Shown here piece after piece: positions 13,413-50,570 of a stretch of DNA of 64,000 bases. The position numbers and the translations under genes are program-made. The stretch comes from Candidatus Woesearchaeota archaeon. Its GTDB lineage: Archaea > Nanobdellota > Nanobdellia > SCGC-AAA011-G17 > GW2011-AR18. How positions within the stretch are numbered: the stretch's first letter is position 1; every line of letters starts with the position of its first letter. The notes below the pieces were generated by a model. That model was not told where the DNA came from. It was given only the letters and a program-made list of their open reading frames with translations, and made no database searches. Where the stretch lies: the NCBI GenBank assembly GCA_018302545.1, contig JAGVZM010000001.1, forward strand, positions 79,033 to 143,032, given 5' to 3'.

Positions 13413-14201
13413 TTAATCCTTAAAACCCATCCATTTTAAGAAAGAATTAACAAAACTTGAATTAGGAGTTTGAATACTCTCCTCATATTTCAAATTTAAT
13501 AAATCAGCAGCTAACTTTTTATATTGAACAGCACTAGCACTCTTTGGATGACTTGCAACAACCGGTTGCTTAGAAACTAAAGCATGTTTAACTGCCCTAT
13601 CTTCCGGTATTACACCAATAACAGGAACATCTAACATTGCTTCTATATCCTTTAAAGAAACATCAGGATTCTTAGCATTTGTCTTAGTAACCAAAACACC
13701 TAAAATATCTTTTCTAAGTTCTTTACAAACTTTAACAGTTTTTAAAGCATCAGTCAAAGCAGGCATCTCAGGTGTTGTAACAATAACAACTTCATCCAAA
13801 GCCTTAACAACACTCAAAGCTTCTTTAGTTAAACCTGGAGCCCCATCTAAAACTATAAAATCACTATGTCCATCCAAATCTCTAACAACACCCGTCAGTT
13901 TATGATGATCTATTTTTCTAGTGTCTTTCAAAGCAATACTTCCTGGCAAGAATTTAATTCCACTGCTATGATGAAAAACAGATTCTAATGCTTCTTTTTT
14001 TCCTCTTAAAACATCATGTAAATTATGTTGATTAACAGGATTTCCTAAATACACCCCAACATTAGGAGAAGTAAAATTAGCATCAACTAAAATAACATTT
14101 TTACCAAAATAAGTCAAAGCAGCTGCTAAATTTATAGCACTAGTTGTTTTACCAATACCTCCTTTTGAAGAAATGCAACCTATAACTCTTGAGATAGCCA
14201 T
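13413..14201 (-). CDS. ParA/MinD-family P-loop ATPase
   Basis: Deviant Walker A SSKGGIGKTT near the N-terminus. 262 aa, MinD/ParA-like throughout. Confidence 0.85.
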   Translation of the reverse strand: MAISRVIGCISSKGGIGKTTSAINLAAALTYFGKNVILVDANFTSPNVGVYLGNPVNQHNLHDVLRGKKEALESVFHHSSGIKFLPGSIALKDTRKIDHHKLTGVVRDLDGHSDFIVLDGAPGLTKEALSVVKALDEVVIVTTPEMPALTDALKTVKVCKELRKDILGVLVTKTNAKNPDVSLKDIEAMLDVPVIGVIPEDRAVKHALVSKQPVVASHPKSASAVQYKKLAADLLNLKYEESIQTPNSSFVNSFLKWMGFKD

Positions 14202-17414: not shown

Positions 17415-18122
17415 ATGTTAAAAATATATAACACCTTAACAAGAAAAAAAGAAGAATTTGTCCCATTAAAAGGAAAAGAAGTAAAAGCATTTGAATGTGG
17501 CCCCACAGTTTATGATCATGCGCATTTGGGGCATGCAAAAACAGCAATACAATTTGATATTATTATAAAGTATTTAAGATATAAAGGCTACAAAGTATTC
17601 TACATAAAAAACATAACAGATATAGATGATAAAATAATAAAAAGAGCTCAAGAAAGAAAAACAACATGGGATAAAATAGCAAGAGAATACGAATCATCTT
17701 ATCTAGAAGACATGAAAAATCTAGGCGTTGATTCTGTAAACAAATTCCCAAGAGCAACAGACTACATTCAAGAAATTATTTCACAAGTAAAAAGATTAAT
17801 AAAAAAAGGGGTTGCATATAAAATTTCTGATGGTTATTATTTTGACTTAACAAAATTCCCAGATTATGGAAAATTAGCTAAAAGAAATTCTCAAGAAGAA
17901 GGAGACGATATTTCTAGAATAGATGAAAACGAAGAAAAGAGAAATAAGGGAGACTTCTGCTTATTAAAATTTAGCAAGAAAGGCGAACCTTATTGGGAAG
18001 ATATTCTAGAAATTGAAATTTCCGAAAGAGAGTATGAATCTATTATAAAAGAAGCAATCAAAAATAATGATGAAGAATTTTTAAAATTAAATAATATAAA
18101 TAAAACAAGATGGAAAAAATAA
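17415..18122 (+). CDS. cysS: cysteinyl-tRNA synthetase, N-terminal fragment (split gene)
   Basis: CGPTVYDHAHLGHA (HIGH motif) and NITDIDDKII...KGEPYW follow the CysRS consensus up to nt 17999. A 40-codon non-CysRS tail then runs to the stop. Confidence 0.8.
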   Translation: MLKIYNTLTRKKEEFVPLKGKEVKAFECGPTVYDHAHLGHAKTAIQFDIIIKYLRYKGYKVFYIKNITDIDDKIIKRAQERKTTWDKIAREYESSYLEDMKNLGVDSVNKFPRATDYIQEIISQVKRLIKKGVAYKISDGYYFDLTKFPDYGKLAKRNSQEEGDDISRIDENEEKRNKGDFCLLKFSKKGEPYWEDILEIEISEREYESIIKEAIKNNDEEFLKLNNINKTRWKK

Positions 18123-18980
18123 ACTTATGCAAAGGAGGATGTGAAAATAAGGCAATGTATAGTGGTTGGTGCGGTTTAAGATGGAGAAAGAAAAATAAAA
18201 TTAGTGTAAGTTGTCCTAAACTTGAAGAAAAACGAGGAATGGCAATTTCAAGATATAGAATAAAAGAAGCAAAGTTAGGTCTTAACCCAATGCAAAATCC
18301 CGAAATATGCAAAAATAATCATTCGATAGGGAGGAATAAAAAAGCAGCACAGTCGTTAAAAAGATTAGGTAAACTAAAACTTTTACCACAACAAATTGAA
18401 AGTAAATATAAAAGTAAAAAAAGATTAATGAAAATAAGGCAAGCATTACAAAAACTTGTGGCTGAAGGAAAATTAAATCATCAAATTGAATCCCAAGAAC
18501 AGAAAAAATTAAGACATGAAAAAATATCTAAAACTATAACAGAATTATATACCAAAGGATATTATAAAAATTTTACAAAGAAGAAGATAATTTATAACTC
18601 AAAATCAAATGGAAAAGTATACTTTCGTTCTAAATGGGAGCTAGAAGTAGCAAAGCTATTAGATAAGAGTAATATTAAATGGCTATATGAACCATTTGCA
18701 ATACCCTATACAGATGATAATAAAAAGAAGCATAATACAATACCTGATTTTTATTTACCAAAATATAAAAGTATAATAGAGGTTAAAGGAGATAGAAAAG
18801 ATTTTATTTCAAATATTAAAAATAAAGAGAAAGGAATCAGAAAGAAGGGTTTTAATTTTTACTTATGGATGGAAAAGGAAATAAAAATGATTAGAAAAGG
18901 AAATTCCCAAATACTTTTAGAAAACATAAAAAATGTAGAGGTAGAAAATAATGCCTAAAATAAAATTAAAAATAAAATTC
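18000..18980 (+). mobile_element. insertion interrupting cysS (carries a Zn-ribbon/PD-(D/E)xK nuclease-like ORF); homing-endonuclease-like element or intron
   Basis: CysRS similarity stops after ...GEPYWE (17999) and resumes at RPGWHIE (18981). The intervening sequence encodes the 18110..18958 ORF in a different frame. Confidence 0.4.
18110..18958 (+). CDS. Zn-ribbon plus PD-(D/E)xK (DUF559/Vsr-like) endonuclease-domain protein encoded within the cysS interruption
   Basis: N-terminal 4 Cys (CKGGC...WCG...SCP). C-terminal FRSKWELEVAKLLD...YEP...PDFYLPKYKSIIEVKG matches the D...(D/E)xK nuclease core. Overlaps both cysS fragments by 13 and 8 nt. Confidence 0.55.
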   Translation: MEKINLCKGGCENKAMYSGWCGLRWRKKNKISVSCPKLEEKRGMAISRYRIKEAKLGLNPMQNPEICKNNHSIGRNKKAAQSLKRLGKLKLLPQQIESKYKSKKRLMKIRQALQKLVAEGKLNHQIESQEQKKLRHEKISKTITELYTKGYYKNFTKKKIIYNSKSNGKVYFRSKWELEVAKLLDKSNIKWLYEPFAIPYTDDNKKKHNTIPDFYLPKYKSIIEVKGDRKDFISNIKNKEKGIRKKGFNFYLWMEKEIKMIRKGNSQILLENIKNVEVENNA

Positions 18981-19763
18981 AGACCTGGATGGCATATTGA
19001 AGACACAGCAATAACAGAAAAAGAATTAGGACAGCAGTATGACCTACATGGTGGAGGTTCTGGATTAATCTTCCCACATCATGAAGCAGAGATAGCACAA
19101 ATGGAATCCATATCCGGAAAAAAACCATTTGTAAAATATTGGATGCATACAGGATTATTAAATGTAAATTCTGAAAAAATGGCTAAATCTTTAGGAAACT
19201 TTACAACAATTAAAGATGCTTTAAAAAATTATAATAAAGAAACCATAAGATATTTATTTGCATCCTCTAATTATAAAAATCAAACAGACTTTACTCAAGA
19301 ATCATTAGAAAACGCAAAAAACAATGTATCAAAAATAAATGAATTTGTGTTAAACATAAAAAATTATAAATCAAAATCAAAAGATTTTCCAAATACAAGT
19401 TATTTAATCACTGCAACAAAAACAAAATTCGAAGAAGCAATGGATGATGATTTTGAAACTGCAAACGCACTAACAGTTATTTTTAATTTCATAAAAGAAG
19501 TAAATAAATTAATAGCAGAAGAAAAATTATCTACAAAAGATTGTAAAACAATAAAAAAATTTATGGACGAAATAAATTCAATCTTTGGAATTATAGAAAA
19601 AGAAGTAAAGATTCCCAAAAATATATTAGAATTAGTAGAAAAAAGAAACAAAGCAAGAGAAGAAAAAAATTATAGGTTAGCAGATGAAATAAGACAGTTA
19701 ATAGTTGAAGAAGGTTATTATATTGATGATTCAAAATCAGGAACAATAATAAAAAAATTATAA
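18951..19763 (+). CDS. cysS: cysteinyl-tRNA synthetase, C-terminal fragment (split gene)
   Basis: RPGWHIE, HGGGSGLIFPHHEAEIAQ and KMAKSLGNF (KMSKS) are the CysRS catalytic-core second half. Same reading frame as the N fragment. Confidence 0.8.
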   Translation: MPKIKLKIKFRPGWHIEDTAITEKELGQQYDLHGGGSGLIFPHHEAEIAQMESISGKKPFVKYWMHTGLLNVNSEKMAKSLGNFTTIKDALKNYNKETIRYLFASSNYKNQTDFTQESLENAKNNVSKINEFVLNIKNYKSKSKDFPNTSYLITATKTKFEEAMDDDFETANALTVIFNFIKEVNKLIAEEKLSTKDCKTIKKFMDEINSIFGIIEKEVKIPKNILELVEKRNKAREEKNYRLADEIRQLIVEEGYYIDDSKSGTIIKKL

Positions 19764-22875: not shown

Positions 22876-23373
22876 ATGAATAAAAATTTATACGCAATTA
22901 GTTTAACAGGATTAACAGCAATAGCATGTGTTACAACTTCTGGAAATACTTCTAACTCTGAAATTGAAATTAAAGTTCAAAGACCAGTAATAATCACAGA
23001 TTCTTTAACAGGAAGAGCATTAGAATTATCAGCAGAACAAACAGAAGCAAAATATACTAATACAAATTGCAGTGAACAAGTTAATGTTTACAAAGCAGAT
23101 GGTAGCTTAGCTCCTAGCAATCAACCATCAGATACAACAGATTATGTTGCTAAAGTTAAAAGATGTGATACAGATTCAGACGGAAACCCAGACTTTACAA
23201 CTGTAGAAAGGGAAGGTTTCATTATCGAAGCAAGATCAAGATTACTTGGTGATACTGGTAAAAAAACAGGTTCATGTTTAGTACTTAAATATAAAGAAGA
23301 CGGTAATAGAGCAAGTTATGCTGAAGATCCATCAATAAAAGACTGTTCTACCTTGTCTCCTTTATGGAGATAA
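22876..23373 (+). CDS. secreted lipoprotein, hypothetical
   Basis: MNKNLYAISLTGLTAIAC is a signal peptide with lipobox Cys. T/S/D-rich mature part. Confidence 0.5.
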   Translation: MNKNLYAISLTGLTAIACVTTSGNTSNSEIEIKVQRPVIITDSLTGRALELSAEQTEAKYTNTNCSEQVNVYKADGSLAPSNQPSDTTDYVAKVKRCDTDSDGNPDFTTVEREGFIIEARSRLLGDTGKKTGSCLVLKYKEDGNRASYAEDPSIKDCSTLSPLWR

Positions 23374-34224: not shown

Positions 34225-35910
34225 ATGCCATTTCCTAAAGCAACCCTAGAATGGGCAAATGATATAAAAGAAGAATTACTATTTAGTTTAGGAACTAAAA
34301 AAGCAATAACAACTTTAGAAAGTATAATCTCTAAAGGTACAATATTTGGAGATGTAAAAAAAGCTATAGAGAAAGTATTCTTAAGAGAAACAACAGCTAC
34401 AGAAACTCCAGAACTACACCCTAGAGAAAAAAAGGCAATAGCTGCATTACTTTATTATGGAATAGGACATAGATATGGTTTTCAAGCATCATTAGAGACA
34501 AATAATTGGATGCCTTATCCACATGAATTAATGGAAGTTAACTGTTACAGTCAAGCAGTTGCTAATTTTGTTGCAACTAAAGCACTTGGATTTGACCCAA
34601 AACTAATTGAGTTTATAGGAATAAGACAAGAAAAACACACAGATCTTGGAGGACATAGTCTAGTTGTAATAAATGTTGGAACTAAAGAATCTCCTGAATA
34701 TTGGACAATAGATCAACCCCAAGGAATGTTCGGTCCAATAAGATTAGAGGATAATAAATTAACAGTAGAAAATCAAGACCAAACTTATTCTAGAAGAAGA
34801 GTAAAATCATTCAATTTCCTGTCAAAACTTGAATCAGGAGAAGAAGAAGTATTAAGTCAAATAGACTCCTTAAGATCAAATCCAAAATTAGTAATACAAC
34901 CAGGACAACGTGTTGGAATTAAAGAATTGGATAGTTGGCAAAGTGAAGAACCAATAAGCGCAGCTTGGTATATAAAATTCGAAGAGACCAATAGAAATGG
35001 TGAACAAGGGGATGTAGTCTCAAGAATATTTTTAGGAAGACCAGGAATAAAAAGTAGAGGATTAGAATATAGACTGAGTATTGGAGAAAAAGGAGATGCT
35101 AAAGAAGAAAGATTATTAGGTTATTATTGTGAAGATTTAATGTGGGCAGATTTTGTAAAGGCAATACCATTAGTTAATTTAGATTATGCAGAAGCAGTTC
35201 CATTATTAGTCGGATTGGATAATATTCCATTAGAAAAAAGATCCGAATTTGAAAGAACTTTAATGAAAGAAAGTGTAAAACCTTCAGCAAAATACAAAGC
35301 AGCATTAGAAGTAGCAAGAGAATCATATAAAAGAGCATTAGCATCAGAGTACAAAGAAATAATATTAACATTAGCAGCAGTAGAATCACTCTATCAATAC
35401 GAAAAAGGAGATAAAGATGATTACTTAACAGAAGAAGAGAGAAGAAAAGAAGTCCAAAGAATAAGAGGAAAAAATATTCTATTTTCTGAATATGCAAAAT
35501 TATCAGGAGAATTAGAACTAAGAAGAAAATCAAAAGGAACGAAAAGAAGATTAAGGATAAATAAACCAGCAGTAGTAGAATACTTAATTCAAGACAGAAG
35601 AGAAGATCCAAGAGTCAGAGCATTTTTAGCTTTAGAAACAGAAGAAGCAATGATTGAAGAAATGATATCCCACAATCCTTTATTTTTCTATGACGCAGTT
35701 GATAGGTTAATATTTTATAATAGAAGAATAAAAGGAGGAATGGATGAAATAAATAGTTTAGCAAGATCTACTTTTAAAGAAAGATATGAAGAAGTTTTAT
35801 TTGGAGGTTATACAAAAATATTTGCAGAATTCTTAGGACATTTCTCAGCAACATTACCAGAATTAAGTCTACAAAAATACAGAAGCAGTATATTAAGAAA
35901 ATTTCAATAA
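34225..35910 (+). CDS. transglutaminase-like (papain-fold Cys-His-Asp) domain protein, 561 aa
   Basis: NCYSQAVANFVATKALGFDPKLIEFIG (Cys), GGHSLVVINVG (His) and TIDQPQG (Asp) match the transglutaminase-like core arrangement. Long helical K/E/R-rich C-terminal half. Confidence 0.5.
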   Translation: MPFPKATLEWANDIKEELLFSLGTKKAITTLESIISKGTIFGDVKKAIEKVFLRETTATETPELHPREKKAIAALLYYGIGHRYGFQASLETNNWMPYPHELMEVNCYSQAVANFVATKALGFDPKLIEFIGIRQEKHTDLGGHSLVVINVGTKESPEYWTIDQPQGMFGPIRLEDNKLTVENQDQTYSRRRVKSFNFLSKLESGEEEVLSQIDSLRSNPKLVIQPGQRVGIKELDSWQSEEPISAAWYIKFEETNRNGEQGDVVSRIFLGRPGIKSRGLEYRLSIGEKGDAKEERLLGYYCEDLMWADFVKAIPLVNLDYAEAVPLLVGLDNIPLEKRSEFERTLMKESVKPSAKYKAALEVARESYKRALASEYKEIILTLAAVESLYQYEKGDKDDYLTEEERRKEVQRIRGKNILFSEYAKLSGELELRRKSKGTKRRLRINKPAVVEYLIQDRREDPRVRAFLALETEEAMIEEMISHNPLFFYDAVDRLIFYNRRIKGGMDEINSLARSTFKERYEEVLFGGYTKIFAEFLGHFSATLPELSLQKYRSSILRKFQ

Positions 35911-35933
35911 TTGATATTAAAAATAAAAAAAAT

Positions 35934-36812
35934 TTACATAAAAGAAGCTGCACTTTCTAAACTAACAGGTTCTCTAGCTGAAGTTGATCCAGATCTAGCA
36001 TAAGCTCTAGCACCTGAAACTGCAGTTTTGCTTCCTGCAACAACATAAGCAGCACCTTCAAGAATCCTTTCTGCATCCTGTTTAACAGGTTGACCATAAA
36101 TTCTTAGTTGTACTGACATTTCATATACTGTAGATTTAACTGACCTTGATTTAGTACTAGTTTTACCCTCTGCTTCTTCAAAAGAAACATTACTAGATCC
36201 AATAGCAATTACTCCTTTTCTATTTTTAATATGATTATCTTTATCTCTAAAAGTAAAACCATCTCTAGGAATATTTGTATCATTTTTATAACCCTTTCTA
36301 GTCTTAACAATAGTATAAGTAGTAGAAAGAGGTTGTCCACTAAGCCTTCCACCATAAGTCTTAGCTAATTGATCAACTTGTGCATCATAAGCAGATTTTG
36401 CTCTTTCTTTATCTAATGCAGAAACAACAAGTGCTTCTACAAAATAATGAACATCAACAGCTCTCGTAAGTTTAACATTAATTTGACTTGGATCATAATC
36501 AAACCCTTTAACTTCCTTTCCTTCTTTTTCAGACAAATCTTTTTCAGCAGCAACTACTGCAGCATCAATAGCTTCATTAATACCCATTGTACTTGTTGCA
36601 GAATATTTTAATTGATCAGAAGGTTTTCCATCTTCCAAACCAGTTAAAGTAACTTCCCAACTTCTAGATAAATCCCAATTAACATCTTTATTATCATGTT
36701 TCAAACCTGTCCTTTCTTTAACAGCAGCATTAAGTTTATCATCTAATCCTTTATGTAACTCTGCTTTCTTAGCAACATGTTCAACTATCAATTCAATTCT
36801 CTCTCTTAACAT
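35934..36812 (-). CDS. hypothetical protein (292 aa)
   Basis: ORF convergent with the TGase-like gene. No motif. Confidence 0.45.
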   Translation of the reverse strand: MLRERIELIVEHVAKKAELHKGLDDKLNAAVKERTGLKHDNKDVNWDLSRSWEVTLTGLEDGKPSDQLKYSATSTMGINEAIDAAVVAAEKDLSEKEGKEVKGFDYDPSQINVKLTRAVDVHYFVEALVVSALDKERAKSAYDAQVDQLAKTYGGRLSGQPLSTTYTIVKTRKGYKNDTNIPRDGFTFRDKDNHIKNRKGVIAIGSSNVSFEEAEGKTSTKSRSVKSTVYEMSVQLRIYGQPVKQDAERILEGAAYVVAGSKTAVSGARAYARSGSTSAREPVSLESAASFM

Positions 36813-36911
36813 AAAAAATTATGAATATCCAATATTAATAAACTTTTCTATAATCATTATAAAATTTTACTACTTGATTAGACGAAAATAAATATTAATT
36901 GTCTATATATC

Positions 36912-37058
36912 TAAAAAATAGCTCCAAATATTAACATAAATAATCCAATTAATATAAAATAAAGGCCTACAATTAATCTAAGAAAATTTGGAAAAGTCAA
37001 AATTAAAATTCCAAAGATAATATTTACAATTGCAATTATTGTTATTGTAGATACCATA
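36912..37058 (-). CDS. small hydrophobic membrane peptide (48 aa)
   Basis: MVSTITIIAIVNIIFGILILTFPNFLRLIVGLYFILIGLFMLIFGAIF has two predicted TM helices. Below the ORF-track length cutoff. Confidence 0.3.
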
Positions 37059-37108
37059 ATAAAATATAAGGCTTAATCTTAATATAAAAGACGTATAAAA
37101 AGTATATA

Positions 37109-37498
37109 TTATAATTTTTGTTTACAAGAAGAACATACACCTATTAATTCAATTTGAAAATGACAGACCTCATCATCAACTAATTCACTTAAAAAATCTG
37201 CATTCTTTATTTTTATATGTTTTAATTTATTACAACTCTCACAAGTAAAATGAACATGGTTTTTTGTGTGATTAGAATAAATCTTTTTATTATTGCAAAG
37301 AAATGAATGTATCTTCATATCTTTTTCTAATGTATTAAGAAAACGATAAATTGTAGCAAGACCTATTTTCTTATTAGTTTTATTCACTTCTAAATGAAAT
37401 TCATAAGCATCAAAAAAAGATTTAAAATTTTTAACTTGTTCATACAAAAACTTTTTTTGAGCAGTCATTCTTCGCATAAATAAGAGAGGATATAGCAT
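37109..37498 (-). CDS. Fur-family metalloregulator (Zur/Fur-like)
   Basis: Winged-helix region LATIYRFL plus HVHFTCESC...CSSC metal-binding Cys/His cluster. Divergent from a ZIP transporter. Confidence 0.8.
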   Translation of the reverse strand: MLYPLLFMRRMTAQKKFLYEQVKNFKSFFDAYEFHLEVNKTNKKIGLATIYRFLNTLEKDMKIHSFLCNNKKIYSNHTKNHVHFTCESCNKLKHIKIKNADFLSELVDDEVCHFQIELIGVCSSCKQKL

Positions 37499-37564
37499 TT
37501 ATATAAATATTATTGAGAATGGTTATCAGTAAAGTTTATATATAGAAAATAATTAAGCAAACTC

Positions 37565-38326
37565 ATGTTAAACATTTGGCTTTATTCATTATTAAGTGTT
37601 TTTATTATAAGCTTAATCTCCTTAATTGGAATAATAAGTTTAAGTATTAAATCAAGAAAATTACAAGATTATTTACTATATTTAGTAAGTTTTTCTGCAG
37701 GTGCATTATTAGGAGACGCATTTATACATTTATTCCCAGAAATAGTAGAAGAGTTTGGTTTAAGTCTAGAAATATCTATAGCAGTATTAATAGGAATAAT
37801 TTTATTTTTTATAATAGAAAAAATAATCCATTGGAGACATTGCCATATTTTAGACAAAAAAGGATCTCACGAAAAAGAACATAAACCATTCGCAATTATA
37901 AACTTAATAGGTGATGCATTTCATAATTTCTTAGATGGAATAATAATTGGAGCTGCATATTTAATAAATATCCCCGCAGGGATAGCTACAACAATAGCAG
38001 TAGCACTACATGAAATACCTCAAGAAATTGGAGATTTCGCAGTTTTGTTACATGGAGGTTTCACAAAAACAAGAGCTTTATTCATGAACTTCTTAACAGC
38101 ACTCTCTGCAATTCTAGGAGTAATATTAGTTTTAATCGCTAGTAATTTAATAGAAAACCTATCAAAGTATTTAGTGCCTTTAGCAATAGGTGGCTTCTTA
38201 TATATAGCAGGAGCTGATCTAATTCCAGAGTTGCATAAAGAAACAACCCCCAAAAAATCAATAGTTCAACTATTATTTTTTATATTAGGAATACTAGTAA
38301 TGATGGCTTTATTATTGTTAGAATAA
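37565..38326 (+). CDS. zupT: ZIP-family zinc/metal transporter (ZupT-like)
   Basis: HEIPQEIGDFAVLLHGGF and HNFLDGIIIG are ZIP signature motifs in TM helices. Confidence 0.85.
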   Translation: MLNIWLYSLLSVFIISLISLIGIISLSIKSRKLQDYLLYLVSFSAGALLGDAFIHLFPEIVEEFGLSLEISIAVLIGIILFFIIEKIIHWRHCHILDKKGSHEKEHKPFAIINLIGDAFHNFLDGIIIGAAYLINIPAGIATTIAVALHEIPQEIGDFAVLLHGGFTKTRALFMNFLTALSAILGVILVLIASNLIENLSKYLVPLAIGGFLYIAGADLIPELHKETTPKKSIVQLLFFILGILVMMALLLLE

Positions 38327-38361
38327 GCTTTATAAACCTTCTAGATTTATCTTATGATATA

Positions 38362-38736
38362 GGCAAGGTACTTAACTACGGATCTATATGGAGATTAAGC
38401 CTTAAAAAGCTAAATTTCAGAGATTCTGAGGAAAGTCCGCCCACTACCTGTGTCTAATGACCTAGGTCCCAGTTTGGGGGTTGCTTACTTTGTAAGTTCC
38501 AGTAATGGAAGGCAACTTTAAAGAAACGAAACGCCCTATAAAATTGGAATGATGTAGCGAAGATTTTGGTGACAAAATCAAGATAACCTGCTGACGTCTT
38601 TATAGGAAACGATGAAACGAAAGATCCCAACCAGTGCAAGTCTTCGAGACGCTTAGTAGAATGTTAAGACAAAGTATCGCGAGAACTGCAAAATAGTTTT
38701 CGTTTGGCTTTGACAAAAGGCGGCTTATTCCTTGCC
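38362..38736 (+). ncRNA. rnpB: RNase P RNA
   Basis: P4 5' strand GAGGAAAGUCCGCCCAC and P4 3' strand ACAAAAGGCGGCUUAU (consensus ACAGAA.CCGGCUUA). P1 terminal helix GGCAAGG...CCUUGCC. Confidence 0.7.
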
Positions 38737-38746
38737 TAAAATATTT

Positions 38747-45072: not shown

Positions 45073-45273
45073 TTATCTACGTTTATAATATAACAAACCA
45101 GCAATAACTAAAATTAAGAGAATAATTATAATCCCAACAATCATAAAAATTCCAATACTTCCAGAATTGAATGTTGTTTCTTCATTAGGAGAATCTACAT
45201 TTTTTGCTTCTTTGTTTTTGCAGTAATTATCAATAAATCTCTTGCAGAATCTAATTCTGTGTGTGTTTGCAGC
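45073..45273 (-). pseudogene. out-of-frame C-terminal membrane-anchor segment of the giant beta-helix protein (frameshift or phase-variable tract)
   Basis: In another frame (offset 1 nt) the sequence encodes ...SPNEETTFNSGSIGIFMIVGIIIILLILVIAGLLYYKRR*, a classic C-terminal TM anchor. It has no start codon of its own and overlaps the main ORF end. T5 runs lie at 45201-45205 and 45215-45219. Confidence 0.45.
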
Positions 45274-48200
45274 CTAACTCTTTGATCATTATCATGGATT
45301 TTTAAAATATAAATATCCCAATCATCTAATTCATCTGAGGTTATACCCAACTCTTGTAGGGGAACTTCAAATCTTAAGTCTATAGGAAACTCTAAAGTCT
45401 CATTTGTGAAATTTCCTCTAAATATTACCTCAAAAAAAGGCCTTCTCCCATTAGGAACTCCTGAACTTCCAGTATTCATAGTAACAACAACACTACCACT
45501 AGAATCTGTATTTGTATTGAATGTTAAAGTGGAGGTCACACCATTTGAAAATGTATTTGTAACTGTATTTGTTTGGCCTACTTGAGAATTAACATTAGTT
45601 GTTTGAGTTTCTCCAGGCTCACCAGCTTCTTGTTGCTGATTCTGATTGTTATTGCTTCTATCTGGCGCACCAGTATTTCCTGGAGAACCTCCCCCACTAG
45701 TTCCGCTAGTACTTCCTGAACTACCAGAAGAAGGAGCTGCATCAAAAGTAACAGCAGCCCAAGGACTAAAGCTAGTTAAATCTCCTATTAATCTTACAAA
45801 TTGTGCAGTTGTATTAATCTCAAAAGTATTACTTAAACTACTCCAACCATTACTATATCTAGCAACAGTTAAATTACTCTCATTAAATGTAGAATTTAAA
45901 TCTGAACTATTATAATATATAGTTAAATTATTAACACTACCATTAATACTTAAGTTATTCATAACTAATAAATTAGAAGCTATGTCACATATCTCACTAG
46001 TGTTACTACAAGTAGTTGCTGAAACTCCTTGGTTAGTTAAATCATTAGTTGCAAAGAAACTAAGATTAGTAGCATTATTAAATGTAAAATTCAAATAATC
46101 AGTTTCTATAATATCATAATTTAATGTATTAACTATCCCTCCATTAGTTATGTTTAATACTGAAGAAGTACTTGGAAGATTAGTTACATAAACTCTATCT
46201 AAAAAAGTAACATTTGCACCATCAAAATAATATTGTATTGCTCCATTACCAGAAGCATTACTATTTGTAAAATTATTCTGACTAGATATTATCTGATAAC
46301 CATATTGAGTATTATTATTAGCAACATTAGAAGTTATATCTAAAGTTGTAGTAGTATTATCTATATATAATCCTGCAGCTAAATTAAAATTAAAAGTATT
46401 ATTTGTAACATTCATATTCAAAGAATCTTCCAAATAAAGACCATAAACATTCCCATTTAATGAAGGATTATTATATATAGAATTGTTGTTTGAAGAATAG
46501 ATTTCTATTCCTTGTCCATTAGTACCATTAAAAATAGTATTAGAATATATGTTATTATTATTTGAAGAAGTACTCATGCTTATTCCTGAAGCAGAATTAT
46601 TAAATAATGTATTAGAAGATAAATCATTATTATAACTAGATGCAAAAGTTATACCTATACCTGTGCTGTGGTTTATAGTATTAGATTGATAAAAACTATT
46701 ATTAGTATTTATTGAATAAACTCCTTGAGAATTATAAGTTAAAGTATTTGAATTAAATGTTAAATTATCTGAATCACTAATATTAAGACCATTATCTAAA
46801 TTCAAATTAAGAGTATTAGAATTCAAAGTAACATTAAAATTATCTGTGATATAAATTCCATCTTGAGTATTTGAATTTGCAGTATTTGAAGTAACAACTG
46901 TATTATTAGTTGAGTTAAGATATATTCCTGTATTTGTATTTGAATTTAGAGTATTACTAATAAAAGTAGTATTATCAGAATCATAAACATAAACACCATA
47001 AACACCAGAAGTAATAATATTATTTTCAAGATATTTATTATCTGAATTATTAATCAAAATGCCATAAGTATTATTTGTAATATTTAAGTTAGTAGAAACA
47101 TTTATCCAAGCATTTCCAAGATCACTAAAATAAATTCCAGCTGCAGTATTAAGGGTATGATTCGTAAAATTATTACTATAAATAGATAAATTTTGGGCGC
47201 TACGCTCAACATATAGGCCAATATTATCATTTCCACTAAACACATTGCCATAAATAGATCCATTTCCATCAACCCAAAGACCATTATACAAATTATTTAT
47301 TAGGCTATTATTTACAAAAGTAAAGTTATTACAATCATTATCTATAAAAATTGCATCAGGAGTTTCTAAAGCGCCATTTCCTTCAAAAGTATTATTAATT
47401 AACAAAGCATTATTAGAATCATCTAACAAAACATAAACAGAATTAAAACTAATGTTATTATTTTCAACAGTAGCATTATCACTCAAACCAACATGAAGGG
47501 GATAACCCACACTAGTTCCTGTTAGGGTGTTATTATAAATAATTAAATTATGTGTAAAAAAGTGAAAGTAAAGACCATCCCTATTACCTGTAAAAACATT
47601 TCCAGTAAAATTAGTAAAGTTCGCATCTCTTGAATAAGTTCCATAAGTATTATTTTCAACCACCAGATTATCATAAATATAATTTACAGCATTAACATCT
47701 CTAATATAAAAACCAGCTGCAGCTCCAGCAGTATGATTATAAACTGAATTAGAAAATGCACTATTATTTGTACTGTTAGTAATATTAATACCAATATTCG
47801 AATTAAGATATACTGTATTTGAAGAAATAACATTATCAGAAGATAATGCAACCAAACCAATTCCATCCCTAGTATTATTATTTAACGTATTAGAATTTAT
47901 TGTTGTATTATGAGAATTAGTTAAAAATATTCCCGTATTTCCATTAAAGGCAATAGTATTTCCAGTTAAGTTAGTTGCATTTGCATTAGTTAAATATACT
48001 CCATAAGTATTATTTCCTATGTTTAGATTATTAGTTATATTAAATTGGTTCTGATCAGAGATAGAAGATAAATAAATACCAGCAGCTAAACCTCTAGTAT
48101 GGTATGTTATATTATTACCATCAATAACATTACCTGAACCTCCTCCACTACTATAAATCCCAGCCTTACTACTATTAATAATTACATTAGAAACAATAGT

Positions 48201-49013
48201 ATTATTTATGTCATTATTAATTATCCTAAACCCTGCTTGGCCGCTTTTATTCATAGTATTATTTTCGAACCTACTATCAACACTAACATCAAGATAAAAA
48301 TTAGCACTATTAGGATTCCCAACAGTAGAATAACTCAAATCACTATCAAAAATATTGTTAGTGAAATTATTATTATTACAAGAACCACCAGAGGAACCAA
48401 CCCAAAAACCATGAACAGAAGAATTAACTAGATTATTATTATCAAACAAACTATTATTCACATTATTAAGATCAATAGATGCCCAAACCGCAGTATTCAT
48501 AATAGTATTATTAAAAAAAGTAAGATTAAGTACATTTGACACAGTCGCCCCCCCAAAATCAGGTGAATCAACAGTGTTTGAAGTAACGTTTATATTAATA
48601 TTAACATTACTAATCCTGAAACCATCACCTGTAACATTATAAATAGTATTATTATAAGCAACAAGGTTTGTAGCTCCACTATCCAATGAGATACCCCAAT
48701 AAAAACCATTAAAATTACAATTTCTTATAGTTATATTGTTCCTTAGTGAAGCTTGAAAACCAATTTCAGCAAAACCCCCATCACCAAAAGCAGTGAACCC
48801 TTGACAGTCTAAAAGAATGTTATTTCCTGTAAAGCTATTAACATCAAAACAGCCTGCAGTAGTAGACACATTTTGTGTTAAAAAATAAGAATCATCCCCA
48901 GCTAGAGTTTGGCAAGAATTAATATCTGTGGCATAAACAAAAGGAATCAAAATTATAATTACTAAGAATAATAAAACCACACCCTTTTTCATATACAAGA
49001 ATAACAAAAACAA
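45195..49013 (-). CDS. giant secreted surface protein with right-handed parallel beta-helix (PbH1-like) repeats
   Basis: 1272 aa with a signal peptide and dozens of N-x-T/S-rich repeats (NNTxYGIYL, NITNN, GIxxxS). There is a G/S/T low-complexity linker before the C-terminus. Confidence 0.7.
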   Translation of the reverse strand: MFLLFLYMKKGVVLLFLVIIILIPFVYATDINSCQTLAGDDSYFLTQNVSTTAGCFDVNSFTGNNILLDCQGFTAFGDGGFAEIGFQASLRNNITIRNCNFNGFYWGISLDSGATNLVAYNNTIYNVTGDGFRISNVNININVTSNTVDSPDFGGATVSNVLNLTFFNNTIMNTAVWASIDLNNVNNSLFDNNNLVNSSVHGFWVGSSGGSCNNNNFTNNIFDSDLSYSTVGNPNSANFYLDVSVDSRFENNTMNKSGQAGFRIINNDINNTIVSNVIINSSKAGIYSSGGGSGNVIDGNNITYHTRGLAAGIYLSSISDQNQFNITNNLNIGNNTYGVYLTNANATNLTGNTIAFNGNTGIFLTNSHNTTINSNTLNNNTRDGIGLVALSSDNVISSNTVYLNSNIGINITNSTNNSAFSNSVYNHTAGAAAGFYIRDVNAVNYIYDNLVVENNTYGTYSRDANFTNFTGNVFTGNRDGLYFHFFTHNLIIYNNTLTGTSVGYPLHVGLSDNATVENNNISFNSVYVLLDDSNNALLINNTFEGNGALETPDAIFIDNDCNNFTFVNNSLINNLYNGLWVDGNGSIYGNVFSGNDNIGLYVERSAQNLSIYSNNFTNHTLNTAAGIYFSDLGNAWINVSTNLNITNNTYGILINNSDNKYLENNIITSGVYGVYVYDSDNTTFISNTLNSNTNTGIYLNSTNNTVVTSNTANSNTQDGIYITDNFNVTLNSNTLNLNLDNGLNISDSDNLTFNSNTLTYNSQGVYSINTNNSFYQSNTINHSTGIGITFASSYNNDLSSNTLFNNSASGISMSTSSNNNNIYSNTIFNGTNGQGIEIYSSNNNSIYNNPSLNGNVYGLYLEDSLNMNVTNNTFNFNLAAGLYIDNTTTTLDITSNVANNNTQYGYQIISSQNNFTNSNASGNGAIQYYFDGANVTFLDRVYVTNLPSTSSVLNITNGGIVNTLNYDIIETDYLNFTFNNATNLSFFATNDLTNQGVSATTCSNTSEICDIASNLLVMNNLSINGSVNNLTIYYNSSDLNSTFNESNLTVARYSNGWSSLSNTFEINTTAQFVRLIGDLTSFSPWAAVTFDAAPSSGSSGSTSGTSGGGSPGNTGAPDRSNNNQNQQQEAGEPGETQTTNVNSQVGQTNTVTNTFSNGVTSTLTFNTNTDSSGSVVVTMNTGSSGVPNGRRPFFEVIFRGNFTNETLEFPIDLRFEVPLQELGITSDELDDWDIYILKIHDNDQRVRLQTHTELDSARDLLIITAKTKKQKM

Positions 49014-49028
49014 CTATAAAAATCTTTC

Positions 49029-49532
49029 TTAAATTTTTAAATATTGTTTAACTTCAGTTTTTAAGTTGTCAATTAAATTTTTAACAAGTTTATCAACATA
49101 ATTTTGTTTCTCATCAGCAACATATTTTCCATACAAAGCCATACTTAATTTCTTAAATGGAGATTTACTCCACTTATCATCATAGTCTCTTTCAACTTCA
49201 ACCTTAACAGATAAATTCAAATTACCTTCCATAACCTTAGCACCATCAACATAAGTTTCCTTGCATTTACTTAATTTAAACTTAAGTTTAATAATCGCTT
49301 TATTATAATCATCTAATTTTTTATCAGCAGCCCATTTTACTGTTAGACTCTTTAAACCACCAGAAGATTCATCTTTATACTCCTTTTCATCTATATCATA
49401 ATCATATCTTTCTAAAAAATTCCTAACTAAAGAAAAGAATTCTTTAAAATCAAAAACTCCTTTATAAGAAATCTCATCTTCTTTAATTAATCTAGAGATA
49501 TAATTGGCCATGAACTTTAAGACTAAAATCAA
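49029..49532 (-). CDS. hypothetical cytoplasmic protein, tandem paralog 1
   Basis: ISYKGVFDFKEF...VKVEVERD. Similar to the 49549..50055 product. Confidence 0.5.
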   Translation of the reverse strand: MILVLKFMANYISRLIKEDEISYKGVFDFKEFFSLVRNFLERYDYDIDEKEYKDESSGGLKSLTVKWAADKKLDDYNKAIIKLKFKLSKCKETYVDGAKVMEGNLNLSVKVEVERDYDDKWSKSPFKKLSMALYGKYVADEKQNYVDKLVKNLIDNLKTEVKQYLKI

Positions 49533-49548
49533 TTAATAATGCTTTCGG

Positions 49549-50055
49549 TTAAAACCTATAAAGGTTAAAGAAATTTTTAATTTCATCCATAATATTCATG
49601 CTATCATTATACAAATCAATTTTAAACTCTTCAGCTCTATCTTTCAATCCTAATTCTCTATAAATTCTAAAAATAAAACTATTTTCATCCCAGCTATTAT
49701 TAGCATTTTCAGTAAACTTAGAATTAAATTCAACTTCTATTCCACAATTATGTAACTTAAGTTTCCTTCCATCTTTTTCAACTTCAACTTCATTTAAACT
49801 ATTAATAAAAAATGTAACATTTAAATCTAATTTAAAATAACCATTCTCCCCTTCTTTACTAGCTTCCCAAAGTATCTCCAAAGTCTTGCCATTAGGTTTA
49901 ATTCTTTCAGAATATTTTTTTTCACCATTCTCACAAGGATCACTATATCCTTGATCCATAAACCATTCTCTAATTTTAGAATATAATATCTCAAGATCAA
50001 AAGTACCTTTATATTTTACTTTAGCACCACTAATTATAGACTCCTCTTTTGGCAT
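49549..50055 (-). CDS. hypothetical cytoplasmic protein, tandem paralog 2
   Basis: MPKEESIISGAKVKYKGTFDLEILYSKIREWF...VEVEKD. Paralog of its neighbours. Confidence 0.5.
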   Translation of the reverse strand: MPKEESIISGAKVKYKGTFDLEILYSKIREWFMDQGYSDPCENGEKKYSERIKPNGKTLEILWEASKEGENGYFKLDLNVTFFINSLNEVEVEKDGRKLKLHNCGIEVEFNSKFTENANNSWDENSFIFRIYRELGLKDRAEEFKIDLYNDSMNIMDEIKNFFNLYRF

Positions 50056-50093
50056 AGTGTTAAATTCAAAAAACTAATTAATAATCTTTTCTA

Positions 50094-50570
50094 TTAATAC
50101 AAATCAAGTTTCTTCTTAAAATATGAATAAACCTCTCCACCCTCTTTGGACAGAGGAATGATATATTTCTTCTTCAAAGTTCCACCAGCAACTTTTGAAT
50201 ATAATTTAAAGAAGAAAATAGACATTTTATCTTGACCATAATTATTTTTATAATCTGTAGTTAAAGTTGCTTTTATTTTTACACTGCAATCTCCAATATA
50301 GGTTGTCTTCAATTTCGTTAATTTTCTAAAAGCAGTTTCAACTTCAATTGTAAAATTAGCAAGAGGATCGATATCTTTACTCATAATAAATTTAAACCCC
50401 ATTTTATGTCCATATTGCTCTGGTTTATCCTCATATTCCTTTTCAACAAAACCATAACCTAATTAAGCAGCCAGTTCCTTAATGCCTTTATAGATTTCTT
50501 CTATATTAAACTCCACACCAGAAACAGAAATATTTCTTTTATACACATCTTTTCCTTTAGGTTTTGGCAT
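50094..50570 (-). pseudogene. tandem paralog 3 interrupted by in-frame TAA (stop at 50463-50465)
   Basis: Same-frame translation from ATG at 50570 reads MPKPKGKDVYKRNISVSGVEFNIEEIYKGIKELAA*LGYGFVEKEYEDKPEQYGHKMGFKF... N-terminal similarity to paralog 2 (MPKE..VKYKGTFDLEILYSKIREWF) spans the stop. Confidence 0.45.

Follow-up and report, generated by a model that had tools for sequence, protein, structure and literature searches.

A 43-bp deletion, rather than a homopolymer switch, separates a woesearchaeal beta-helix surface protein from its membrane anchor

A large gene for a parallel beta-helix surface protein lies in a 64-kb stretch of a Candidatus Woesearchaeota contig (JAGVZM010000001.1, positions 79,033 to 143,032; "the window" below is this whole stretch, and coordinates are counted along it). 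The gene stops short of its C-terminal membrane anchor, which is encoded in another frame at its 3' end. The two frames were parted by the absence of 43 bp of non-repetitive sequence that is retained in three other assemblies. We consider it likely, with a probability of about 0.7, that the window holds a deletion allele of a normally 1320-amino acid (aa) gene and that this allele is a real variant in an aquifer sub-lineage instead of an artefact. The event is of a well-known kind, a truncating indel in a surface-protein gene, and it calls for no new mechanism. The main value of the analysis is one of correction: what had the appearance of a homopolymer switch is a truncating deletion of 43 bp or, possibly, an assembly error.

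An allele that lacks 43 bp

Three assemblies carry the intact allele: ENA ERZ4903137 (contig k141_140854, here L001), Logan SRR3989338 (L006) and ENA ERZ27254754 (contig k141_10350, L007). Aligned with the window by blastn, L001 is collinear over 20.3 kb, with 2 mismatches and a single gap of 43 bp: its positions 13776-13818, which read GGTTTACTGGGTTTAGTAAATTTATTATTGTTACAGATCCTTT on the coding strand, are missing between window positions 45218 and 45217. The identical 43 bp, set between flanks that are 100% identical, are also present in L006 and L007. With these bases restored, the gene is a single open reading frame (ORF) of 1320 aa that continues through the anchor. The arithmetic is simple: 43 = 3 x 14 + 1, and the loss is one of 14 codons plus 1 nt, which shifts the frame and brings in a stop 7 codons on. 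The deleted segment codes for (R)FTGFSKFIIVTDP(L), and the last predicted beta-strand, KFIIVTDP, sits inside it; the one lesion consequently shifts the frame and removes a strand. The intact product is represented by P0035 (1320 aa, from ENA ERZ4903137), a member of the window protein's 90%-identity cluster, which has ...DSARDLLIITARFTGFSKFIIVTDPLNKEAKNVDSPNEETTFNSGSIGIFMIVGIIIILLILVIAGLLYYKRR and ...LLIITARFTGFSKFIIVTDPLNKEAKNVDSPNEE...LLYYKRR in one ORF; the peptide FSKFIIVTDPLNK comes from the intact allele.

These comparisons establish the deletion and exactly where its borders lie, the presence of the intact allele in three assemblies and, with the homologues described below, the ancestral single-ORF architecture. 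Of the three explanations offered by the initial annotation, the first, a frameshift mutation releasing an adhesin, is supported: a mutation does cut the anchor off. Its site is not a poly-T tract; the lesion is the 43-bp deletion at 45218/45217. How the deletion arose is not betrayed by its surroundings. There is no microhomology at its ends, and the gap cannot slide in either direction; direct repeats, inverted repeats or a hairpin around the deleted segment were sought and nothing beyond chance was found (DNA fold z-score +0.68). A slippage or hairpin mechanism for the deletion is not supported. The 31-mer adjacent to the junction has no exact match in GTDB species genomes or JGI metagenome contigs.

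Which of the two forms came first? A full-length search finds P0002 (1417 aa, 32% identity at 100% query coverage) and P0004 (905 aa, from a contig labelled Woesearchaeota), with N-termini of the same signal-like kind as that of the window protein. The C-terminal module is rare: its profile, with the transmembrane (TM) segment left out, matched only six proteins at E <= 1e-3 among 1.84 billion representatives. A scan of genome contigs with the module profile recovered only the contig of P0004, and a word-seeded search with the reconstructed C-terminal 285 aa gave no match. P0002, P0004, P0036 and P0038 share a domain of the form ...LGIT..(E/D)LD...I....V.D..., and in all four of these distant homologues it is followed, in one ORF, by a hydrophobic strand (S/K)YFI(I/V/F), of the FSYFI(I/V) type, then a short linker and a TM helix with a basic tail behind it. 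P0035 is laid out alike. The complete module (beta-sandwich, strand, linker, TM helix and basic tail) is thus found in one frame in these five proteins and not in the window allele, which alone among the compared alleles and homologues has an early stop. Because all four distant homologues and P0035 run through the anchor in one ORF, the intact form is ancestral and the window's deletion derived. Orthologues that likewise end before the anchor, a pattern that the initial annotation had named as evidence against its reading, did not turn up: every homologue of the C-terminal module continues through the TM anchor in one ORF. The more distant beta-helix matches end in TM-plus-basic tails or in PGF-type tails.

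The gene, its product and the stranded anchor

The ORF at 45195..49013 on the minus strand specifies 1272 aa from a TTG start and is confirmed in the window's ORF list. The annotated ATG start at 48992 yields a product of 1265 aa, identical to NCBI MBS3167647.1, which lies on a 231-kb contig and is recorded as 'right-handed parallel beta-helix repeat-containing protein [Candidatus Woesearchaeota archaeon]'. Look-ups with the exact window product gave no match. The truncated product ends in ...TAKTKKQKM (...LLIITAKTKKQKM), followed by TAG at 45197-45195. It is a member of the right-handed parallel beta-helix repeat/NosD-like family, with gathering thresholds passed over multiple repeats: Pfam Beta_helix (PF13229) matches it in 8 stretches (6e-57, 192 bits against a cut-off of 25.9), Pfam NosD (PF05048) in 6 (1.6e-41, 142.5 bits against a cut-off of 23.6) and NCBIfam TIGR03804 (para_beta_helix) in 14. 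These matches and the ORF itself bear out the initial description of a 1272-aa beta-helix protein ending ...KKQKM at 45195. The NosD copper-maturation protein proper (TIGR04247) was considered and rejected, at 50.8 bits against a cut-off of 300: the repeat fold is common to both, the NosD function is not. The core given in Table 1 is bounded by the best NosD and Beta_helix stretches, in 1272-aa numbering, and the helix extends past it, given the number of stretches overall. The intact allele holds 75 N-x-S/T sequons, where about 51 would be expected from composition.

The second frame is open from 45273 to 45073 on the minus strand and encodes ...NKEAKNVDSPNEETTFNSGSIGIFMIVGIIIILLILVIAGLLYYKRR and a stop; its end, reaching down to 45073, is the out-of-frame C-terminal TM anchor (...IGIFMIVGIIIILLILVIAGLLYYKRR). 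The frame contains no listed ORF of at least 30 aa with an ATG, GTG or TTG start, so that its initial description as an anchor in another frame with no start of its own is confirmed by the frame and the ORF list alike. The hydrophobicity of the anchor tail, 3.47, is at the top among the window's stop-to-stop frames that end hydrophobic, essentially tied with one at 3.48. The two frames overlap over 79 nt, and the anchor frame is the -1 frame, open throughout the overlap. Two T5 runs had been reported in this overlap: one is indeed a T5 (45215-45219 on the plus strand), the other is six nucleotides long (45200-45205, lying before the stop on the minus strand).

That the anchor belongs to the beta-helix protein is supported by the intact single-ORF alleles. 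A Pfam scan of the anchor returned nothing relevant, and among the NCBIfam CTERM models only Heimdall-CTERM responded (E = 3.7, 8.1 bits against a cut-off of 24). An archaeosortase-type sorting signal (PGF-CTERM and relatives) was rejected, there being no match to a curated CTERM model.

Table 1. Features of the deletion allele and its 3' end (window coordinates; aa, amino acids; AF2, AlphaFold2; CDS, coding sequence; pLDDT, predicted local distance difference test)
Feature	Position	Strand	Remarks
Stop codon TAA of the anchor frame	45073-45075	-	Follows KRR
Basic tail KRR	45076-45084	-	Follows the TM helix
Transmembrane helix IGIFMIVGIIIILLILVIAGLLYY	45085..45156	-	Hydrophobicity; AF2 helix, residues 272-298 of the 299-aa C-terminal query
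Stranded out-of-frame 3' gene end: linker NKEAKNVDSPNEETTFNSGS, TM helix, KRR, stop	45073..45216	-	In frame and continuous in the intact allele
Premature stop TAG	45195..45197	-	Shifted frame, 7 codons past the junction: K T K K Q K M, stop
A6 run (T6 on the plus strand)	45200..45205	-	Separated by 2 nt from the premature stop
A5 run (T5 on the plus strand)	45215..45219	-	Made by the junction GCAA/AAAC; consequence of the deletion, not its cause
Deletion junction	45217..45218	.	43 bp, GGTTTACTGGGTTTAGTAAATTTATTATTGTTACAGATCCTTT, in three other assemblies, none here
Retained part of C-terminal beta-sandwich module	45218..45611	-	AF2 pLDDT about 77-91 for most; rare module
Parallel beta-helix core	46698..48062	-	From best NosD stretch (aa 318-461) to best Beta_helix stretch (aa 641-772)
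Signal-peptide-like segment MKKGVVLLFLVIIILIPFVYA, N-terminal	48930..48992	-	Suggested by sequence pattern
Truncated (deletion-allele) CDS of the beta-helix surface protein	45195..48992	-	Upstream TTG at 49013 would give 1272 aa

What the deletion would do to the protein

The C-terminal 299 aa of the intact protein were modelled with AlphaFold2 (AF2) on a shallow alignment of 4 rows. Mean pLDDT is 60 and lies at 77-91 for most of the folded domain, a predicted beta-sandwich at residues 107-251 whose last strand (244-251, KFIIVTDP) falls within the 15 codons touched by the deletion. A Foldseek search of the model against the PDB gave no match at E <= 0.001. The intact 1320-aa protein would consist of a signal peptide, a sequon-rich parallel beta-helix, an S/G/T/N-rich linker, the beta-sandwich, a short linker, the TM helix and KRR. 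Loss of the 43 bp takes away the codons of the last beta-sandwich strand (FSKFIIVTDP), and the shifted frame runs into its stop 7 codons later, leaving 144 nt of anchor-coding sequence stranded out of frame. The product should still be exported and should no longer be tethered to the membrane. With no anchor, and with its last domain short of a core strand, it is probably either unstable or without function. What the window presents is most likely a recent loss-of-function or pseudogene allele, not a regulated switch.

Homopolymers as bystanders

The same arrangement, two frames joined by an overlap with runs of A, also lends itself to a different account, put forward in the initial annotation in two versions: a phase-variable poly-T/A tract that toggles anchored and released forms by slipped-strand mispairing, or a 1-nt homopolymer sequencing error. 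One extra A in the A6 run at 45200-45205 would, by computation, rejoin the frames, and genes for surface proteins are a class in which contingency loci occur. Yet what the window allele in fact lacks relative to the intact one is a unique sequence of 43 nt. None of the assemblies has the extra A: the length of the A6/T6 run is identical in the window, L001, L006 and L007, which are all four of the assemblies that cover the site. The A5 run is a by-product of the junction. Because A5 is the junction itself and A6 is of one length in all assemblies, the homopolymers are bystanders. Moreover, repairing the frame by +1 at A6 would still leave the protein without 14 residues, the conserved strand among them, and a loss of 43 bp cannot be reverted by slipping.

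Sequencing error fares no better. Other assemblies cover window positions 1-38660 and 38709-58992, about 58.9 kb of 29%-GC sequence, and over this length they differ by 10 single-nucleotide polymorphisms (SNPs) and by no indel besides that of 43 bp. Not a single 1-nt indel is encountered, and a homopolymer-error-prone data type is therefore ruled out. Slippage in either version, as the origin of the frame split, is already refuted, and we assign it a very small probability. The gene was likewise dismissed as a simple sequence repeat or homopolymer contingency locus: its frame change is at neither a homopolymer nor a short tandem repeat, and tract length is the same across assemblies.

Might the runs nevertheless be put to use now that the deletion has occurred? 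A -1 ribosomal frameshift or transcriptional slippage at A5/A6 could in principle provide a programmed mixture of released and anchored protein: the anchor is in the -1 frame, which is open over the 79-nt overlap containing both runs, and that A-runs permit slippage at a low level is generally established. When the last 30 codons are scanned, however, no in-phase X XXY YYZ heptamer is found in the overlap; the two-frame layout is found in no homologue or sister allele, P0035, P0002, P0004, P0036 and P0038 all being single ORFs; and the layout dates at the earliest from the deletion, around which no flanking differences have built up. Since it is no older than this very recent event, it cannot embody an evolved recoding programme, and programmed recoding strikes us as highly improbable. 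Low-level spontaneous slippage at A5/A6 may occur on the deletion allele; it would be noise.

A real variant in the population?

The probable alternative to slippage, a genuine deletion allele, has to be weighed against a simpler possibility: that only the intact 1320-aa gene exists, and that the gap was introduced by faulty local re-assembly or by a contig join in making the 231-kb contig. Three considerations speak for a real variant: 1) The window contains no Ns. De Bruijn assemblers output only junctions whose k-mers occur in reads, which by inference favours a real junction. A junction free of overlap is, besides, hard to produce by graph assembly or by the merging of overlaps. 2) A nearby polymorphism favours it as well: a nonsense SNP at 50465 is common to the window and ERZ27254754 and is not found in ERZ4903137. 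3) The independent MEGAHIT assembly ERZ27254754 hints at a second path. Its contig k141_10350 ends at window position 45077, exactly 141 nt (= k) past the right breakpoint, and the downstream contig L005 starts at window position 45202, 15 nt inside the breakpoint. The two contigs were left unmerged, with 126 nt in common. A contig end at k past the breakpoint is what a graph fork arising from a second allele or path would give, and it may count as weak evidence for a real variant. As proof of a second allele in ERZ27254754 it was downgraded: no contig ends at the left breakpoint, and elsewhere contig ends are due to adapters or chimeras. The clean record of the compared 58.9 kb also tells against faulty assembly.

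Several observations nevertheless weigh on the other side. The deletion allele is known from one assembly only, and the intact allele is found in three of the three other assemblies that cover the site. Its breakpoints lack the microhomology, repeat or hairpin that would supply a mechanism, that is, any signature of a biological deletion. The argument from the graph fork is one-sided, as there is no contig break at the left breakpoint in ERZ27254754, and the breaks of this assembly within 15-140 nt of the site count towards an artefact. Other contig ends in the same assemblies stem from adapter read-through or chimeras, and artefacts are known from the assemblies of these samples (an adapter tail on L014, a chimeric mini-scaffold, L018). 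Finally, the shed or unstable product is a prediction. On balance an assembly or curation artefact is the less probable account, though one with an appreciable minority claim, and we continue to prefer a real deletion allele. All of the compared assemblies sample one near-clonal population (10 SNPs and one indel in about 58.9 kb). Its origin, groundwater of an aquifer, is read from the names of the metagenome contigs (PRJNA268031, "ANAN16"); a literature search for the accessions gave nothing.

Known parallels and significance

Natural premature-stop and frameshift alleles of an anchored surface protein are familiar from Listeria monocytogenes, in which truncated internalin A is secreted (the premature stop codon, or PMSC, alleles of inlA). 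The shared points are these: a surface protein anchored at its C-terminus loses the anchor through a truncating mutation, its product is predicted to be released, and truncated and full-length alleles coexist in natural populations. The present case differs in being archaeal, in having a TM helix and basic tail in place of an LPXTG/sortase anchor, in that the 43-bp deletion takes a structural strand as well, and in being known from sequence alone.

Phase-variable contingency genes for surface proteins, with homopolymers or short tandem repeats, occur in Neisseria, Haemophilus, Campylobacter and Mycoplasma. The resemblance to these lies in a surface-protein gene whose two frames could become one by gain or loss of 1 nt in an A/T run; here, in contrast, a deletion of unique sequence split the frames, the tract is invariant across assemblies and the change is irreversible. 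Programmed -1 frameshifting is exemplified in archaea by fucA1 of Sulfolobus solfataricus, with its slippery A-AAA-AAT. Here too the target frame is -1, and an AAAAAAT string stands just before the stop; unlike that of fucA1, it does not lie in phase with the zero frame, and the layout is unconserved and due to a very recent deletion. To the beta-helix/NosD-like surface (glyco)proteins of archaea the window protein is allied by its Beta_helix and NosD repeats, signal-like N-terminus, many sequons and C-terminal TM helix with basic tail; from those with a TM or PGF-CTERM anchor it is set apart by the absence of a curated CTERM match and by a rare beta-sandwich with no confident PDB fold match.

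For annotation, the practical consequence is that MBS3167647.1 is best regarded as an allele, frameshifted or truncated, of an anchored surface protein of 1320 aa. The C-terminal module (beta-sandwich plus TM anchor) could serve to mark surface proteins of Woesearchaeota; it is not a new principle. Elevated non-synonymous variation has been found in putative cell-surface proteins of Nanoarchaeota populations (PMC6142677). If the deletion is real, it adds one more case of surface-protein genes bearing disruptive variants in near-clonal DPANN populations, in agreement with that study. One can go further and speculate that a real deletion, coexisting with the intact allele and with the upstream nonsense allele E36* (described below), indicates that selection in the sub-lineage currently favours losing or shedding a major surface beta-helix protein, with A5/A6 slippage perhaps leaving a trace of anchored protein. 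We regard this as rather doubtful; were it true, such selection could reflect, for example, escape from viruses or changed attachment to a host.

Elsewhere in the window

Directly downstream of the beta-helix gene lie the genes for ribosomal protein L21e, Rpo4 and a DUF655 protein; those for S13, S4, S11, fibrillarin and Nop5 are also nearby. A full-length archaeal RNase P RNA was identified at 38395-38739 on the plus strand (Rfam RF00373, 91.5 bits), and no tRNA genes were found in the 64-kb window. This gene content and a GC content of 25-33% fit a DPANN-type archaeon.

Directly upstream of the beta-helix gene and on the same strand, three distant paralogues of about 160 aa (about 24% identity, E 1e-5 to 1e-6) occupy 49029-50570 (minus strand). 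None of the three has a Pfam match, and the neighbourhoods of P0002 and P0004 lack them. The first of the cluster (50094..50570, minus strand) contains the nonsense SNP: codon 50463-50465 is TAA in the window and GAA (Glu36, hence E36*) in ERZ4903137. The gene, 158 aa long without E36*, falls into ORFs of 35 and 102 aa with it. This is a second disabling polymorphism, lying about 1.1 kb upstream of the beta-helix gene, and the stop allele recurs in contig k141_10350 of ERZ27254754, in which the beta-helix allele is intact.

Several assembly breaks and joins were noted in passing. L018 (ENA ERZ28563694 scaffold_111884, 737 bp) was rejected as a second structural variant, being a chimeric mini-scaffold: the beta-helix gene contributes its 5' part (48988-48500), to which unrelated DNA and a 35-nt fold-back are attached. 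P0034, an odd cluster member of 173 aa, derives from this scaffold. Around 35430-38709 (L014, L009 and L001) a 3.2-kb segment that carries the genes for FUR and a ZIP transporter along with the RNase P RNA is flanked on either side by assembly breaks. An Illumina adapter (AGATCGGAAGAGC) is attached to one of the contig ends there, and, judging by the stated lengths of two ERZ4903137 contigs (about 61-64 kb), at least one of the two must depart from collinearity with the window across this segment.

Two further loci deserve mention. Amid an almost invariant 59 kb, a small cluster of three non-synonymous SNPs within 13 nt (23269, 23276 and 23281, in the gene at 22876..23373 on the plus strand) separates the window from ERZ4903137 (G132S, C134F and V136I, window residue first). 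At 17415-19763 (plus strand), cysteinyl-tRNA synthetase is encoded in two parts: an N-terminal half at 17415-18122 (profile positions 2-182) and a C-terminal half at 18951-19763 (positions 189-300 and DALR), in the same frame and 828 nt apart, a layout also present in ENA ERZ4903137. Between them, in another frame, lies an ORF of 282 aa with weak similarity to Phage_endo_I and to TnsA-like nucleases, and judging from this arrangement the synthetase gene may be split and contain an inserted nuclease gene.

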